Below are positions 24,451 through 31,347 of a stretch of DNA of 64,000 nt, in pieces. Below the pieces are notes generated by a model that worked only from the letters and a program-made list of their open reading frames with translations, ran no database searches and had not been told where the DNA came from. Position numbers and translations under genes: made by a program. This DNA comes from Lytechinus pictus (Eukaryota). Positions within the stretch are counted from its first letter, which is position 1. Each line of letters opens with the position of its first letter. The stretch covers positions 10,108,001-10,172,000 of the forward strand of contig NC_087245.1 in assembly GCF_037042905.1 (NCBI RefSeq), read 5' to 3'.

Positions 24451-26081
24451 AAATCACTTATATTGATAAGAGTGTAACGAAGGTAGCAATAATTGATATA
24501 TTTATCACCGTCGATCATGAAAAAAGAGGTATAAGTCGTACCTTATCCCATGGGTCTTACCTCCCTATACAGTGCGTATAAAAAAAGTTTACACTTTGAA
24601 AAAGCCATGTGCGTAATTTTTTCACATTATAATCTTAGGCTTGGGTCTCATCTATCCAATGAAAGTAAAAGTTTTGACAGAATGTTACACTTGGGTGAGC
24701 ACTGTCCATTTTTGTAAAGCTTGCAGAAATCTGTTTGGGCAGAAATGCTCGTTTTCACGCTGTGTCAAGGGGAAAGGGCGAAATTAAATTTACCCTGCGA
24801 AACATTTCTCATACATTTCCCTTGCACTTTTAGTCAAGTGAAAAAAAACCCAGATACATTCAAGCACTTTGTAACAATTTTGCCACCCAAATTGAAATTT
24901 CAACACTTAGTAAGCACACACTTTACCCTTTTTGTGCCAGCTGGATCTGAGGACATACATTAACTGAATCTGAACAAAAGTTTATATCAGACATCACCAG
25001 CATTTTTTCACTAAGTTCTTATCATCTAAAGTGGGTTTACATTTCATTTTTTATTCAATACTTGTTTCTCCACACCTTGTCCAAGCTTGACAATGATTAA
25101 CAAAATGAAAATCAAGCCTAATCCATTTCATGTAAATCACAGCTCAGTGTAATGGCGACCGCACACCTTACGACTGGTCTGCGACCCGATTTCAGAATAA
25201 AATGTAGTAGAATTTTATGCTAATATTGAGACTTGGAATATCTTACTGTGTAATGTTCTAAATCATCGTATGAATACCTATGATCAAATTTGTGACTATG
25301 CTATTGTAACGAACTATGTTTCCGATTTAATGTCGTAGAGATGTTATAGGGTCTGTAAACGTAGACTATATGGAAATCGTATGTGTAGACGTTCTATGAT
25401 TTAACGAAAATTAGCCAAAATCGCACATTTTATAAACATGTTGGAGTTGTCATGAAACCTTTTGATTAATTTATTATAAGCAAAGTTGCCTAAGCATTAT
25501 CCAGTTGTTTTATTCGAGAAAGCTGGTTGATTAGCAAAGTTAATTAGGTTATTGTAGTTGTTGAAGTCATCTTTAGTAACTGTTTTATCGAAGTGTTAAA
25601 AAATGCATAAATACGAGGAGCCAACTAGTATTAAGGCCGATCTGTGTTACAGCCCTTTACCGTAGTGCAAATGCTGCCCTTCATCTCTTGTATCTCATTT
25701 TGCTCTGTACAATGATATATCTTTGGGAAATTAAAGGTAAAGATCAAGCATTGAACCTACACTCTGGACTACGTTCTTATGAGTGTTATAAAGGATCAAA
25801 TGATTGGTGTACGGAACGAATGCTGGTGATTGAATGGTCGACGGATGTCCGATTGACTGAAATGAGACGTAGACGAGAGAGGTGATCGATTGCAATCGAC
25901 GGATGATCTGACTGGAGAAACCAGAGACGACGGTTGGTGATGGTTGTTAATCAGTCTTTTCCATAAACCATCAGCAACGGTCATATACTTTGACCAAACG
26001 AACGCAACTGACGGTCAGGCACGGTGGCATCCTGACAAGAAAACCGTGTCAGCTGAAAGTTGGATTAGAGGCCGTCACACG

Positions 26082-26099
26082 TGGTGTCAGAAGTGGGAT
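26082..26099 (+). promoter_or_regulatory. Primer-binding site (tRNA-Leu type)
   Basis: TGGTGTCAGAAGTGGGAT lies 2 nt after the CA end of the 5' LTR and is complementary to the 3' end of a tRNA-Leu. Confidence 0.85.
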
Positions 26100-26120
26100 T
26101 GTTGGTGTAGAAGTTCAGAA

Positions 26121-27836
26121 ATGGATGTTCGAGGACAAAGATGGCGTGCGGTATCGCCGGCTGAGGTGATGGAGAAGTTGGAGAGCAGTATGGCGAAGAT
26201 TAATCAGATGATGGCGGAGATACGGACCAGGATGGGATTGACGCCATCATGGGGGACTGATGAGGCGTGCGGTAGGCATGGGCCGAGAGTTCAGTTCCGA
26301 TCTTCACAAACTGACAACTTCAGAGCAGCAAGGATACCGCAGCGTACCGAATTGGAACAAGAATTTTTCAGGACTGAGCTACAAGATACCCGACATAGAC
26401 GAGCACCCGAGATGAGAACCGAATCAGGAAAATTACTGCTAAATCATCACGAAGTTAGATTAAAAGAACCAAATATTGTACCAGATCAATTCGATGGCCG
26501 CACTCCGGTTGAGGAATATCTGAACCATTTTCAGGCGTGCATTGTGGTGAATCATTGGGGAGAATTTGAGGCAATGGAATATCTGGCTGCCAGCCTGAGA
26601 GGTTCTGCGGTTACACTGCTTACGCAGAAAACAGGAAGGCGACTCAGTTACTATGAACTAGTGGACAGAATGAGGAAAAGATATGGTCCAGGTGGTAAGG
26701 CAGAGGTCTACCTTGCCGAGTTGCGACAGCGACGGAGAGGACCAGGAGAGAAACTTCAGGAATTAGGACAGAGCATAAGAGATCTGACGGCTCTCGCCTA
26801 TCCTGAATTTGATGAAGTCGGACAAGACCGGTTGGCGAGGGGGCACTTGCTAGATGCGATTGTAGATTGCAAAGTCCGAGAAAGGGTTTTCCGCTCCCAA
26901 CCAAGATCACTGGACGAGGCAATAGAAGCTGCTCTGAATGCGGAGGCGTTCTCAAGGATGGAGGATGAAAGGTGGGAATACCAGCAAGCCAGATACAGTC
27001 CTGCTGTAACCCGAGATGGCGACGGAATTCATGTCCGTACTGGAAAACCCTCCTTGAAAGTGAGAATGAAAATGTTCATTCAAGATCTTCTGCAAATGGA
27101 ATCGGAAGAGCCAGAGTCAGATGACGGAAATTCAGGAGAGAAATATTCCGAAGCTGATCAGGCAGGTGCTGAAAAATCAGAGGGAAACACCTTCGTTTGC
27201 GGAATTGTTGGACAGCAGTTGGGTACTATCTCGACTGACTGTGAGGAACCAGAGACAAGGAGCACTAAACGATGTACTGGTACAGCAATCCCTGGAGGAC
27301 AATTCGATAGAGCTGGAATATCGGTCACAGGCCTGATGGACAAGGGAGTCACAGGTGTGGAGCCATTTGGTGGGTGCACTTTGGCGGGTGGGCCGAAGCA
27401 GTTGCAGGACCAGTTGGCTGAGACTGTGCAGGATGTTCCAGTTGAATGTCTGGAATCGGTGCCAAGATCGTTTGAGGACTTCGGTAATGTCTCACCTAAG
27501 AGCCGGTTGCTTGACCATGAGAAAGTCTGTCTTGTAAAGCTAGACAATGAAACGAAAGAGGTAGGACCATCCAAACCAAACAGCAGGAGATATCTAGACC
27601 AGATGAACAGCGATGGAGGAAGGCAACAGACATCACAGACGGTTCGCATGAACAGGCACCAAGGTGTTGATCTGAAAACCTGGACATTCGCACAACCGTT
27701 GTCAAGTACCGCCACTCTGTTTGTTGGACCAAAGAAGGGAAGACCTCCGGAAACGCATTCGGTATCCGTGATGATGTTAAGAAGAGCTGGACATAACAGT
27801 CTTCCAGTCTATCCATCTATGTTTCCAAAGAACTGA
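26121..27836 (+). CDS. gag: Ty3/Gypsy Gag (capsid) protein, 571 aa from the first ATG after the PBS; no PR/RT/RH/IN
   Basis: Capsid-like motifs PDQFDG..EEYLNHF..NHW..LAASLRGSA..YYELVDRMRKRYG..AELRQRRRGPGEKLQELGQSIRDLTALAYP..PRSLDEAIEAA. No CCHC knuckle, D(T/S)G, YxDD or integrase motifs were seen. Confidence 0.88.
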   Translation: MDVRGQRWRAVSPAEVMEKLESSMAKINQMMAEIRTRMGLTPSWGTDEACGRHGPRVQFRSSQTDNFRAARIPQRTELEQEFFRTELQDTRHRRAPEMRTESGKLLLNHHEVRLKEPNIVPDQFDGRTPVEEYLNHFQACIVVNHWGEFEAMEYLAASLRGSAVTLLTQKTGRRLSYYELVDRMRKRYGPGGKAEVYLAELRQRRRGPGEKLQELGQSIRDLTALAYPEFDEVGQDRLARGHLLDAIVDCKVRERVFRSQPRSLDEAIEAALNAEAFSRMEDERWEYQQARYSPAVTRDGDGIHVRTGKPSLKVRMKMFIQDLLQMESEEPESDDGNSGEKYSEADQAGAEKSEGNTFVCGIVGQQLGTISTDCEEPETRSTKRCTGTAIPGGQFDRAGISVTGLMDKGVTGVEPFGGCTLAGGPKQLQDQLAETVQDVPVECLESVPRSFEDFGNVSPKSRLLDHEKVCLVKLDNETKEVGPSKPNSRRYLDQMNSDGGRQQTSQTVRMNRHQGVDLKTWTFAQPLSSTATLFVGPKKGRPPETHSVSVMMLRRAGHNSLPVYPSMFPKN

Positions 27837-28844
27837 TAAAGGACTAAATTTGAAAGACATCGTTGCACTGGACTTTAATTCATAAAACATTGGACTTTTA
27901 GTTGCCAAACTGAATTATTACGTTCTTGTTGCTATTTTGTATACATGCCGTAGTTTAAGCATTTTAATTTGTCGGTTTTTCTAATGCAAAAAAAAAAATT
28001 AAAGTCAGTAATGCAATTGTTATGACTGCCGATAAATATCTTGTCAGAAATTGATATTTGTATGTAACAATTAGCATTATGTTGATAAAATCAGGGAAAG
28101 GAAAATATTCGAAATCGTTTGCACAAGTACGGATAGCAATATTTAATCTATTGAAAGTTGTAAGTAAACCATGTAGTGCAGTTTTTATTAGAATTACATT
28201 CTGGTATATTTCTGTTTTGTTACTGAATTGGTCAGCTCGGGGACCGAGCTTTTCGAAGGAGGGAGTTGTGTAACGAAATGAAAGGTTTATTTAATGTACA
28301 TCATGGTTTTGGAACGGTGAAGAGCGTAGAATAATTTTTAATCCATGTATAAGTTGCATATGGACATTCAGTAATCGTTTGTAATCGATTATGTAGGTAT
28401 TTCTCTGAAATGTATGAAGGCAGTATTTGCTGAGTAATAACGATGTTTACAACTGCTTGATTATGTTAGATATTCATTTTTAATTGTTCTTAACTGTTCA
28501 GGTATAAATAGTAGTGACAATTACCATAGTTGTTGTTGAAAAGATTTAACTCATGACTTTAACTAGTTTTAAAAGATGATTAAATTTTACGGCCTGGCAA
28601 TTTCCCTCCTAAATCGTTGAGCATAATCGGGCTCTATGCTCGATTATGAGCCATGCATTATGCTTGGCAGTAAAAGGTTTCTGACCGAAACTCTGTTCGA
28701 TTTTCATTAGAACCTGCTGCGACAGGATGAGCATGATTTCTTCAGTAAAGTTATAAGAACTGATTGCCTTGCTTCCTGCGAGTCGTTATTTTGATGTTCA
28801 GAGCTACAAGTATACATGGTTGAAGGAGCAGAAGTACGAAAGTT

Positions 28845-29090
28845 GGAAATACTGACCAGAAGAAGTGAGAGTACGGAAAATACTGACTTTACCGGAATAC
28901 GGAAAATACCGACTTTACTGAGAATACGGAAAATACTGACTTTACCGAGTATCTGAAAATACTGAGATGAGTGAGGATACTGAAAGTACTGAAATTACTG
29001 AGATACCGAAATACTGAAATTACGGAGATACTGAATACTGGAATAACTGAGAAAACGGAGATACGGAATGACGGAGATGTTGAAATACAC
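28845..29090 (+). repeat. Short tandem repeats inside the 3' LTR-like region
   Basis: ~25-bp units TACGGAAAATACTGACTTTACCG and ~9-10-bp AAATACTGA/GATACGGA units. Confidence 0.8.
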
Positions 29091-31347
29091 GGTATATAGT
29101 CTAAGTTACTGAGAAGGAGCAAAGAGTCAGAAGTGAAAAAGACGGACTTTACACCAACTGGTTGTATATTGCAGCCGAAACGAACCAGCTCGTCAGGAGA
29201 GAAAGTCGGTTCGGCTACACTATCATCCTTTTCAGAATAAAAGCGAATTTAATATCTAGTCGTAATGACGTCATAGCAGTCGTACGATTGGCTACGACTT
29301 GAAACTAATTTGGTCTTTACTCCAAAATAAGGGCTTGCAATCTTTTAAAATGGTTATAATATTATTATTTCAATTAATTTTAACCTCAAATAAAATGATA
29401 TGTCCCATTCACATCTTCAGAAAATGAGAAAAATGCGATTTGTTCCAAAATCGGGTCGCAGACCAGTCGTAAGGTGTGCGGTCGCCTTAAAGCATATATC
29501 GTCACAATGGCCTCGGTGTGTGGGCGAGTGGGGATGGGGCGCAATGCACTATTTGAAGTGTTTTGGGCAAGGAAACAAGTTAAAAAGGTAAAAGATATCT
29601 TCAAATCAATTTTACTAGCTAACTTCAACATGTTATTCACGATTAAGGTCTACTTTTATTCGCATAACTATTTCAAAGTTCTGCGCAAATCATTTTCACT
29701 AACTTTTCAAAAGTAAGTGGTGCTCACTCAAGCGGAAATATTTTTCGACAGTTATATCGTCATTTTCTTAAATGGATCTGTACCAATGTTAAAATGTGGA
29801 AAAATCTTCAGGATATTACAAATGTATAATTTTACACGATTTTTTCTAGGTGTAAACTTTTTTTTGATACGCATTGTATAATACACACACATCATGACTC
29901 GGATCTTGAAACATTTGAAAATCATCAAACATTGATTTAAAAAGAATATACATTTACCTTTTCTCAGTATCCGGTATATGGTAACCAAGGAATGTATTAA
30001 AAGATATTAAGCATTCCGGTTGGGATTTTCACCAGGCGTATAAGTCGGATGATGTCTAGACGTTGAAAACTGACTAAAATATACAACTTCCTTAACAAAA
30101 ATGCTTCTTTATTTCAGATAATAAATCCTTTTAACTGCATGTTTAGCCCATAAAAGTGAGATCATTGTTGACGTTGCTGGGTGCCCGTCACGACATTGCT
30201 CGTAAAGCATGTAAGATAGAGAAGGCATCTACTATAATCAACAGGACAATAGCCGTTCCATGGCGTTAGTTTTATGGAAAATTGATGGCAATTCGTTGGC
30301 AAAGAGCTCTCGAAAAAGCGAATGTCAATAATATGCACTTTCGCACAGTATAGGGAGTAATTGCGCATACTGTGCTGCCCACGGCGCCGTTTCGACTGCC
30401 CGTAATTCTGCGAAACTGTTGCAACGATTTCAAAGCATACATAATTATTACCATTAGTTTGTGAGTGGGAAAGTAAGTTTATAGTCAATTGTTAATATTC
30501 TGCCACGGGTCATTACCTGATATATTGGTTGTATGTATGTGTTTAGATTTTTTATTTGTTTTAGTTTGTTTTGGATTATGTTACTTGTCACTTTTTTTCT
30601 TTTTTCTTTATTAATGTTTTTTTTGTTTGTTTGATTACGATCATGTCTAATTATGTAAATATTGTGATTTCTTGTAATTGACTATTTATGAAAACAATAA
30701 AAACATAATAAAAAAAAAGAAAAAAAAAGAAGTTTATAGTCAATTGCAGTTATAACGTCAGTGAAATGTTGCTTTATCAACCTAGATCGTAATGACATAG
30801 TTCGAAAACGCTGCATTTATACACAATCATTTTAGGGGCTGGTTATAGTCTGGGGAAATCTTATTGAATATCATTTAGACAAGCTGCTGCGCCCCACACG
30901 TTCAACTTGGCAAGTGTTATGTTTGCCTACTTTTCGGGGGGGGGGGGAGGGTGTCTCTAATTCTGCATCAGTTTCTTGAATCTCTGTATCTAAAAAAAAA
31001 ATCAGCAGAGAATCTGACAATACCAGCTATCTCTTTGGTTCTCGATTCGCTGAACCTACCATAGCAGCATTGAAGTTACGTGTGGTTACCATGACAACAC
31101 GGTGGATGTTGGAAGTGCCTTCATCGTAATTATAGTTTTGATGAATTGCATTGTAATTGAGATGATGTAATATAATGACCCAAACGTGATCAACTGTTAA
31201 AAAATAATTGTCTGGTTGTTTCGAAGAAAAGAAAATTTATCGTCTTGTGCATCAAATTAATTAGTCAAGCTATTTCATAATGGATGTAGACACAGTGTTG
31301 GTTTTTACAAATGAAATTGGAGGATGTTCTTACGCCTTTCTCAGTAC

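Follow-up and report, generated by a model that had tools for sequence, protein, structure and literature searches.

The 64,000-nt stretch of Lytechinus pictus DNA analysed here (the window) carries at 25305-29219 a single 3,915-bp insertion inside a 414-bp MITE, with the layout A LTR / PBS / B internal / B LTR. It is best explained as a recent, chimeric Ty3/gypsy insertion formed prior to integration. The most probable route (roughly 70%) is a PBS-mediated exchange between replication intermediates of families A and B before they were integrated, the simplest form of which is an intermolecular plus-strand strong-stop transfer.

The host MITE and the target duplications lie at the following positions:

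25150-25152, no strand: TAA, left target duplication of the host MITE (partner TAA at 29488-29490)
25154-25304, + strand: left part of the MITE, interrupted by the LTR element (TIR 25154-25201; matches the intact copy L064)
25301-25304, no strand: CTAT, left copy of the 4-bp TSD (a single CTAT in the intact MITE L064)
29220-29223, no strand: CTAT, right copy of the TSD (from the empty-site comparison with L064)
29220-29486, + strand: right part of the MITE (TIR 29439-29486; three other copies alike)

The empty site is represented by the intact MITE L064, which reads ...GACTATGCTATCATCC... with CTAT present once. The left flank of the element matches L064 to L064:171 and the right flank matches it from L064:168, giving a 4-nt overlap. 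The CTAT duplication and the two MITE halves on either side of the element, both claimed in the earlier note, were confirmed by this comparison. The TIR of the MITE measures 48 nt and is 94% complementary to 29439-29486. The 147-nt left part was also given by all four of the other MITE copies checked (by coordinate arithmetic), and all 267 nt of the right part were found at a rounded 100% in three other copies among the best 40 of 2169 candidates, with bit scores of 478 compared to 482 for the self-match. At two loci (L052 and L054) the flanks are joined without the MITE and read ...CAGTGTAAAGCA.... The MITE is present in thousands of copies in the genome. The one TSD, checked against an empty site, shows that all 3,915 bp entered the MITE together in a single integration event.

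Two terminal segments bound the insertion:

25305-26079, + strand: 5' LTR of family A, 775 bp, full length, TGTAACGAA...CACA, near-identical to the LTRs of A-int-A elements
28269-29219, + strand: 3' LTR of family B, 951 bp, TGTAACGAA...TACA, with a 26/27-nt tandem array at 28866-29069

These segments are unrelated; they are genuine LTRs, but of two different Ty3/gypsy families. A blastn comparison of the two (word size 7) returned only eight matches of 9-15 nt with a best E of 0.25, and the co-linear matches were limited to the 9-nt start TGTAACGAA and one other 9-mer. The earlier description of two LTRs of different sequence, both running from TG to CA, is upheld by this comparison and by inspection of the ends. 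The 5' LTR displayed 98.0-98.6% identity to seven LTRs from four A-int-A elements, which equals the identity among those elements, and carries five private substitutions and one 6-bp indel compared to other A LTRs. Because it has private changes, yet is as close to the A LTRs as they are to each other, the insertion is considered recent and locus-specific. The 3' LTR displayed 92-95% identity (gaps excluded) to seven other B LTRs, the spread found among B copies, in a genome search that scored the best 40 of 215 candidates.

The following features lie between the LTRs:

26082-26100, + strand: PBS, 19 nt, beginning 2 nt past the LTR and fully complementary to the tRNA-Leu 3' end plus CCA
26102-28268, + strand: internal region of the non-autonomous family B, 97-98% identical to copies flanked by B LTRs
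26121-27836, + strand: 571-aa ORF, a gag capsid part fused in frame to pol remnants
28234-28250, + strand: palindromic hairpin AGCTCGGGGACCGAGCT, 5' of the polypurine tract and kept in family A
28255-28265, + strand: polypurine tract (PPT) GAAGGAGGGAG, 3 nt ahead of the 3' LTR

A PBS directly after the first segment and a PPT before the second had been noted previously, and both were found in place. The tRNA that matches the PBS is tRNA-Leu(CAG), a gene for which was found in the same genome, and a GAGGGAG core precedes the 3' LTR in A, B and C copies (family C being a relative described below). The hairpin of family A carries a paired change, with T..A replacing C..G. What the earlier note termed an intact 571-aa gag does have an open frame of that length, but it is not a clean gag, as only amino acids 1-355 are gag capsid-like and the remainder consists of remnants of the PR-RT linker and the final integrase residues. 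No zinc knuckle, PR, RT, RH or IN was detected in the 571-aa ORF. At the amino-acid level the ORF is 64% identical to the gag section of L063, a gag-pol of 1687 aa, and 45% identical to the family A gag, and beyond gag it aligns to the PR-RT linker and then to the IN tail of the L063 protein. DUF1759, the sole Pfam match of the ORF (E 0.22), was below threshold and was set aside. Protein-atlas matches were retrotransposon gag/protease clusters (best score 0.87), which serve as leads only.

Each parent exists in the genome as an ordinary element, A-int-A or B-int-B. Family A is an autonomous Ty3/gypsy family of ~7.8 kb encoding gag-PR-RT-RH-IN, and four A-int-A pairs were seen; the distance between the LTRs is ~7.0 kb in the pairs at C11, C6 and C17 and 11.9 kb in the pair at C7. 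The copy at C11 encodes gag-PR-RT plus RH-IN domains, its 775-bp LTRs are 99.2% alike and its TSD is GTAT. Family B, which is non-autonomous and ~4 kb long, is represented by four B-int-B copies (at C17, C3, C8 and C37), and the copy at C17 has 928-bp LTRs that are 99.5% alike and the TSD ATAC. The internal region of the window element has 98% identity to C17:26713168-26715351 and 97% identity to C3:78015697-78017894, both of which are flanked by B LTRs. In the copy of family C (L063), the LTR resembles that of B (76-77%), the PBS is the same and the PPT region is identical. Both L063 and an A copy (L061) contain gag-asp_proteas, RVT_1, RT_RNaseH, Integrase_H2C2 and rve in that order, and A and C are 54% identical over gag-PR-RT. 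The two families, A and B, are related and have in common the tRNA-Leu primer site, the 9-nt LTR start, the ..ACA end and near-identical PPT regions. Family B is an internally deleted derivative of a gag-pol element.

The window element displays the TG..CA ends, tRNA-complementary PBS, PPT and a TSD within the 4-6 bp of Ty3/gypsy elements, but not the two LTRs identical at insertion, nor the pol order PR-RT-RH-IN. The Gypsy label given to it previously is supported by the pol of its relatives and not by the window copy itself, which has no pol domain. It has the make-up of a non-autonomous element, in that RT and IN are missing while LTRs, a PBS and a PPT have been retained from an autonomous relative.

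The change from A to B falls in one short interval:

26077-26101, + strand: crossover interval, 25 nt common to A and B (ACA, CG spacer, PBS, G), from the junction display

When five A and seven B 5' junctions were compared, the window sequence was A-type through 26076 and B-type starting at 26102. Seven A 5'-LTR loci align to the element through position 797-803 (L019 and L020 being one place), and seven B loci align to it from position 773 onward. The 22 nt past the LTR are identical in four of the five A and three of the seven B junctions shown, with 1-2 nt different in the others. Outside the PBS stretch, no nucleotide similarity was found between the internal region of the element and an A element. 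A single TSD, both parents in the genome and a breakpoint in shared sequence are the marks of a recombinant made during reverse transcription, and they bear out the suggestion in the earlier note of a hybrid formed before integration.

The same product and the same single TSD are also expected if a finished linear A cDNA recombined with a B cDNA at the DNA level across their common 25 nt, whether by homologous recombination or by single-strand annealing, and the hybrid then integrated. As the PBS stretch is the sole sequence shared by A and B, a homology-guided process would land there. However, 25 nt is very short for homologous recombination, and strand transfer normally employs exactly the PBS stretch in the replication cycle, making recombination between cDNAs rather unlikely. 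The sequence of a single copy does not discriminate between strand transfer and DNA-level recombination at 25 nt.

Later replacement of an LTR by another family had also been suggested, in which gene conversion or microhomology-mediated repair would have put an A LTR in place of the 5' LTR of an ordinary B-int-B element. The TSD and MITE halves would be retained in such an event, and A and B do have common sequence where the LTR begins (9 nt) and at the PBS (25 nt). Homology arms of this size are, however, far too short for normal conversion, nothing is left of a B 5' LTR and the replacement must be exact at both LTR boundaries. With homology on the left side limited to 9 nt, such a replacement is highly improbable.

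The possibility that the assembly wrongly fused elements of A and B within their common 25 nt was considered in the light of four of 23 public sequencing runs. Among the contigs listed from runs X1, X2 and X5 (98% likeness), with 1380 further pieces beyond the listing, none bridged 26077-26101 or the MITE/LTR junctions, as would be expected of an artefact. The contigs of run X2 displayed parental junctions, from A PPT to A LTR at 25305 and from A LTR to A-internal sequence at 26101, and those of run X5 were empty-site MITE copies, which are not locus-specific given the copy number of the MITE. In RNA run X21, sampled to ~6 in 100, no read matched the element at 98% likeness. An artefact would, however, require that an A element and a B element had each hit the same CTAT in separate MITE copies, both the A LTR and the internal region differ from all other copies in the assembly (the best being 98% in each case) and the contig is tens of megabases long. 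We therefore regard misassembly as very unlikely.

A census of the genome, built on coordinates (the full-length sequence was read for one copy each of A, B and C) and on a search that scores the best candidates (40 of 215 for the B LTR), identified 26 B/C-type internal 5' boundaries with all 29 candidates scored, and only that of the window adjoins one of the 52 genome matches for the A LTR. None of the other 25 lies beside an A LTR; 14 of the 25 have no LTR listed upstream, and for these the count establishes only the absence of an adjoining listed A match. All ten A-type internal boundaries adjoin A LTRs and none adjoins a B LTR. Of 30 A-LTR loci, the window's alone continues into B-internal sequence. 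Because no other B/C boundary adjoins an A LTR and no A boundary adjoins a B LTR, the window element is a one-off recombinant. The earlier note had itself proposed that copies be classified genome-wide and had held that ordinary copies elsewhere would mark this one as a one-off; ordinary copies are what was found.

The non-autonomous lineage propagating with hetero-LTR ends, which that note had raised, was not borne out, the window holding the sole A-int-B junction among the 26 boundaries. The ORF, PBS, PPT and TSD are intact in the window copy, as they would be in a propagating element, but the counts of 0/25 and 1/30 speak against a lineage. Since a single U3 and a single R-U5 serve to rebuild both LTRs during reverse transcription, a parent with hetero-LTR ends gives no progeny of its own kind by the normal route. 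Being mechanistically implausible as well, such a lineage has next to no likelihood.

The preferred PBS-mediated exchange would require A RNA and B RNA to be reverse-transcribed within one particle. We infer that the two RNAs were co-packaged; their leaders have little in common past the PBS. Plus-strand strong-stop DNA of A, consisting of U3-R-U5 plus the copied tRNA end, would then anneal not to its own minus strand but to that of B, at the PBS complement lying at its 3' end, and completion of both strands would give A-LTR / PBS / B-internal / B-LTR. Integrase would take both ends because their tips are alike. The RNA of such a hybrid would begin in R of A and finish in R of B, so it would have no matching first-transfer acceptor on the same RNA and should not breed true. 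The element looks like a rare copying by-product rather than a new kind of element. Two other sources were ruled out: a chimeric read-through RNA, as a single RNA yields two identical LTRs, and two cDNA ends joined by integrase, as the product would be two whole elements.

In retroviral experiments plus-strand transfer was reportedly mostly intramolecular. An intermolecular second transfer would be a rare event, since the passages concerned of two reviews present no such transfer (PMC6894440, PMC3187697). In the passages available, the second transfer is described as occurring inside the minus-strand template and 'at least two' steps are named as recombinogenic, the first transfer and template switching during minus-strand synthesis (PMC6894440), and the two ends are said to lie probably close together when plus-strand transfer takes place (PMC3187697). 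As those passages describe retroviral and LTR-retrotransposon recombination (PMC6894440, PMC3187697), the window element resembles it in having two templates per particle, a switch at shared sequence and one TSD; recombination at the first transfer or by minus-strand switching yields two LTRs that are identical, if possibly mosaic, whereas those of the window element are wholly different. Such different LTRs, combined with a switch at the PBS, point to the second (plus-strand) transfer.

LTR swapping was reportedly described in soybean by Du et al. in 2010, in a case said to concern families with both LTRs exchanged that were subsequently amplified. In the wheat LTR-swap case, as set out in part of its report (PMC9744471), a non-autonomous element likewise gains the LTR of another, autonomous family, with PBS, PPT and LTR tips as the shared handles. 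The wheat case, however, concerns families with both LTRs exchanged and then amplified, whereas here only the 5' LTR was exchanged and in one copy. By analogy, the window copy could be an intermediate of such an LTR swap. Sugar beet chimeras, in which TRIM-08 copies have LTRs from TRIM-01 or TRIM-05, similarly combine LTRs and internal regions of different families, and the portion of that report available attributes these chimeric non-autonomous elements to template switching (PMC13570524), although their hosts are plants, unlike that of the window element. Three-LTR complex insertions, as outlined in sections of Sabot and Schulman (2007; PMC1950507), are attributed to template switching and share an abnormal inter-template event within one round of reverse transcription and a single flanking TSD, but have three LTRs, two internal regions and near-identical outer LTRs, compared to two unrelated LTRs and one internal region here. 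A literature search made without most subscription journals found no description of an element flanked by a TSD in which the two LTRs are unrelated and the breakpoint lies at the PBS, and absence from print is not claimed.

A broader 'host switch' model, in which A particles routinely package B RNAs and LTRs are regularly exchanged singly by strand transfer, with the conserved PBS and hairpin-plus-PPT on either side of the internal region as handles, appears doubtful. If true, the window copy would be such a switch caught midway, and a second exchange at the PPT would lead to A-int(B)-A, a new non-autonomous family with the A promoter.

The window element is one data point rather than a new system. 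Exchange of LTRs between families is usually inferred from families that are already amplified, and this insertion records the event itself, with the breakpoint resolved to 25 nt around the PBS, both parents present and one TSD. It suggests that the second (plus-strand) transfer is recombinogenic, a step absent in that role from the LTR-retrotransposon review passages cited (PMC6894440, PMC3187697). By implication, one particle brought together RNAs from both families, although their LTRs are unrelated and their gags only 45% identical. Hybrid copies of this type would be missed or misdated by LTR-pair finders and LTR-divergence dating.

The window corresponds to G000:C1:10108001-10172000 in an 811-Mb eukaryotic assembly, and contains a hybrid LTR element with the following features:

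25154-25201 and 29439-29486, inverted ends of the host MITE, 48 nt
25305-29219, LTR element, 3,915 bp, inside the 414-bp MITE
26077-26101, crossover interval, 25 nt common to A and B (terminal ACA, CG spacer, PBS and one G)
26082-26100, PBS, 19 nt, complementary to the 3' end encoded by a tRNA-Leu(CAG) gene, with CCA added
26121-27836, ORF, 571 aa

An intact copy of the host MITE (L064) has one CTAT at the place where, in the window, the insertion stands between two copies of CTAT, and the left and right window flanks overlap by exactly 4 nt when placed on L064. The 147-nt left MITE part was the same in four of four further MITE copies (coordinate check). All 3,915 bp therefore inserted together, duplicating a 4-bp target, and the empty-site copy bears out the CTAT duplication in a split MITE described in the earlier note. 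The host MITE (window 25150-29490; 414 bp) has inverted ends starting GGCGACCGCACACC and a 3-bp TAA/TTA target duplication, which we take to be of the PIF/Harbinger (Tourist-like) type. It looks recently active, given 2169 first-look candidates in the genome and, among the best 40 scored, three other copies that align to the whole 267-nt right part at 100% identity (rounded). It is nested within another repeat, since two loci have its flanks joined without the MITE (L052:432-482; L054:575-625).

The two ends of the element are unrelated, each being the normal LTR of its own family. As the same note had claimed, the LTRs are different: blastn (word size 7) of the 5' LTR (A; 25305-26079, 775 bp) against the 3' LTR (B; 28269-29219, 951 bp) returned only 9-15-nt matches, with a best E of 0.25. 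The A segment had at least 52 genome matches (best 40 of 45 candidates scored) and, among those listed, A-LTR pairs are spaced ~7.0 kb on C11, C6 and C17, with a wider spacing of 11.9 kb on C7. Full-length sequence was read for one copy per family. The A element L061 (C11) has 775-bp LTRs 99.2% alike, a GTAT TSD and two overlapping ORFs, the first with zf-CCHC, aspartyl protease and RVT_1 and the second with RT_RNaseH, Integrase_H2C2, rve and Integrase_p58_C, which is the Ty3/gypsy order. In L061 (G000:C11:9666131-9674904, - strand) the polyprotein is split into these frames within the RT domain, RVT_1 in the first ORF being matched only up to profile position 164 of 205; this could be a frameshift in that copy or an assembly indel.

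The internal region is found together with the B segment in ~4-kb B-internal-B elements on C17, C3, C8 and C37. The B copy L062 (C17) has 928-bp LTRs 99.5% alike and an ATAC TSD. In L063, from a third family (C), the LTR resembles that of B (76-77% identity), PBS and PPT are the same, and a single 1687-aa gag-pol ORF follows the domain order of L061; L063 is the closest autonomous relative of B among the elements read (one full copy per family). L063 also carries, between its pol and 3' LTR, an additional 269-aa ORF (L063:1631-2437, - strand) with a C2H2 zinc-finger match for the whole protein (E 8.6e-07), no individual stretch passing alone. The B LTR contains a degenerate 26/27-nt tandem array (window 28866-29069) whose length differs among B copies, in part accounting for low B LTR identities. 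The B copies at G000:C8:40759480-40763796 and G000:C37:191266-195580 look like one insertion present twice, by segmental duplication or as an unmerged haplotype contig, because they have the same ORF indels, the same internal rearrangement and 3' LTRs 98.8% alike.

The 571-aa ORF had been read as an intact gag. The frame is indeed open and residues 1-355 are gag-like (64% identity to gag in the C polyprotein, 45% to A gag), but the remainder consists of pol remnants: zinc knuckles and protease are missing, residues ~349-491 resemble the C stretch between protease and RT (27% identity) and the last residues resemble an integrase tail. A Pfam search of the ORF gave no significant match. Together these likenesses show the ORF to be a gag-pol with an in-frame internal deletion rather than a designed gag-only gene. 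At least one frameshifting indel was found in the ORF in each of the seven other B copies examined (C17, C3, C8, C37, C12, C11, C4), with C12, C11 and C4 covered over the first 1,394-1,457 nt and C8 and C37, which carry identical indels, counted separately. The open frame of the window copy is not strong evidence for selection.

With element positions aligned, A-family 5' LTR loci extend up to 797-803 and B-family loci run from 773. Side-by-side comparison of the junctions showed the window to be A-type through 26076 and B-type from 26102. The 22 nt 3' of the LTR were identical in four of the five A junctions and three of the seven B junctions shown, the others differing by 1-2 nt, and beyond this shared junction stretch the internal part showed no similarity to the A element. 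The hybrid proposed in the earlier note is thus supported in its pre-integration form by one TSD, A and B parents and a junction at the PBS; its other form, replacement of the 5' LTR after integration, is unlikely, as the conversion arms would be only 9 and 25 nt.

A search for the tRNA-Leu 3'-end pattern found 20 sites in tRNA-like arrays and none in the control. ARAGORN called a tRNA at one of the two loci fetched; the other, its 5' end missing from the fetched piece, reads like an intron-bearing tRNA-Leu. The arrays hold 9, 6 and 4 copies at G000:C2:22041377-22059905, C11:26682856-26687447 and C17:3788329-3789576; the C11 type, apparently a Leu(CAA)-like gene with an intron, agrees with the C2 Leu(CAG) gene in its final 19 nt. 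A, B and C have in common the LTR start TGTAAC(G/A)AA, the LTR end ..ACA and a hairpin-plus-PPT block, with a paired difference in the hairpin of A relative to B/C. This 17-nt palindromic hairpin, just 5' of the PPT (window 28234-28250; same block in L061, L062 and L063), has the pair T..A in A and C..G in B and C, and its conservation across families with a compensatory pair suggests a structured element for plus-strand priming or RNA handling. The first ~160 nt of the A internal region match at several staggered offsets (e.g., G000:C8:10096107-10097017, C11:9093962-9094446); the A leader right after the PBS is a tandem repeat of varying copy number, and holds a TTGGTGCAGAAC motif resembling TTGGTGTAGAAG directly after the PBS in B.

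The hybrid copy is a one-off in the assembly among the best candidates scored, to which the census of copies was confined. When the first 399 nt of the B internal region served as query (29 of 29 candidates scored), 26 places showed an intact 5' boundary, C-type copies (77% identity) among them, and just one, the window's own, adjoins an A-LTR match (among 52 listed). The other 25 comprise 10 with a B LTR listed directly upstream, one with a C LTR (L063) and 14 with no LTR listed, because the B-LTR search scored the best 40 of 215 candidates. All 10 A-internal 5' boundaries adjoin A LTR matches, one of 30 A-LTR loci (again the window's) continues into B-internal sequence, and no B-internal 3' end adjoins an A LTR start among the matches listed. 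The propagating hetero-LTR lineage suggested earlier is therefore not upheld, the window copy being the sole A-internal-B arrangement among the 26 boundaries. Misassembly of separate A and B elements is unlikely too, as each would have to have inserted at the same CTAT in a different MITE copy. In public sequencing runs, no contig among the matches listed crossed the A/B junction, and the part of one RNA run that was read (about 6%) had no reads on the element at 98% likeness.

The window A LTR has 98.0-98.6% identity to seven LTRs of four A elements, which are 98.3-98.8% alike among themselves, and carries five private substitutions and one 6-bp indel. The window B LTR, at 92-95% identity (gaps excluded) to seven further B LTRs, likewise matches the range seen between B copies, and the internal region has 98% identity to the C17 copy. 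By these values and private changes, the hybrid is about as young as the other intact copies, and its sequence duplicates no other locus.

During reverse transcription a single U3 and a single R-U5 are the source of both LTRs. The LTRs made from a chimeric RNA, or after an intermolecular first jump, are mosaic but identical to each other; as the LTRs here differ, these two origins were rejected. Wholly different LTRs meeting at the PBS, as here, are the outcome expected of an intermolecular second transfer, which is the most likely origin. A RNA and B RNA would have been reverse-transcribed within one particle, which is plausible because B lacks RT and IN and has PBS, PPT and LTR tips in common with A. 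The A plus-strand strong-stop DNA, ending in copied tRNA sequence, would have annealed to the 3' end of the B minus strand, where the PBS complement lies, and completion of the strands would have produced A-LTR/PBS/B-internal/B-LTR. A more roundabout variant, in which the B minus strand runs through the PBS into A and the plus strand is then primed at the A PPT, would again use the PBS as the handle. Recombination of two completed cDNAs at the DNA level, within the shared 25 nt, would yield a product identical to that of strand transfer, and we regard it as a less likely source.

Transcripts of this copy would run from the R of A to the R of B and, because these are unrelated, would have no in-cis acceptor for the first jump, which fits the absence of progeny. 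'LTR swapping' has reportedly been described in soybean. In passages of two reviews, the first transfer and minus-strand template switching are the recombinogenic steps of LTR retrotransposons and the second transfer is placed within the minus-strand template (PMC6894440, PMC3187697). Related accounts cover LTR exchange between autonomous and non-autonomous families in wheat (PMC9744471), chimeric TRIMs with donated LTRs in sugar beet (PMC13570524) and three-LTR complexes flanked by TSDs, explained by template switching (PMC1950507). The window copy belongs with these known inter-family LTR exchanges and chimeras, with an unusually clean breakpoint.
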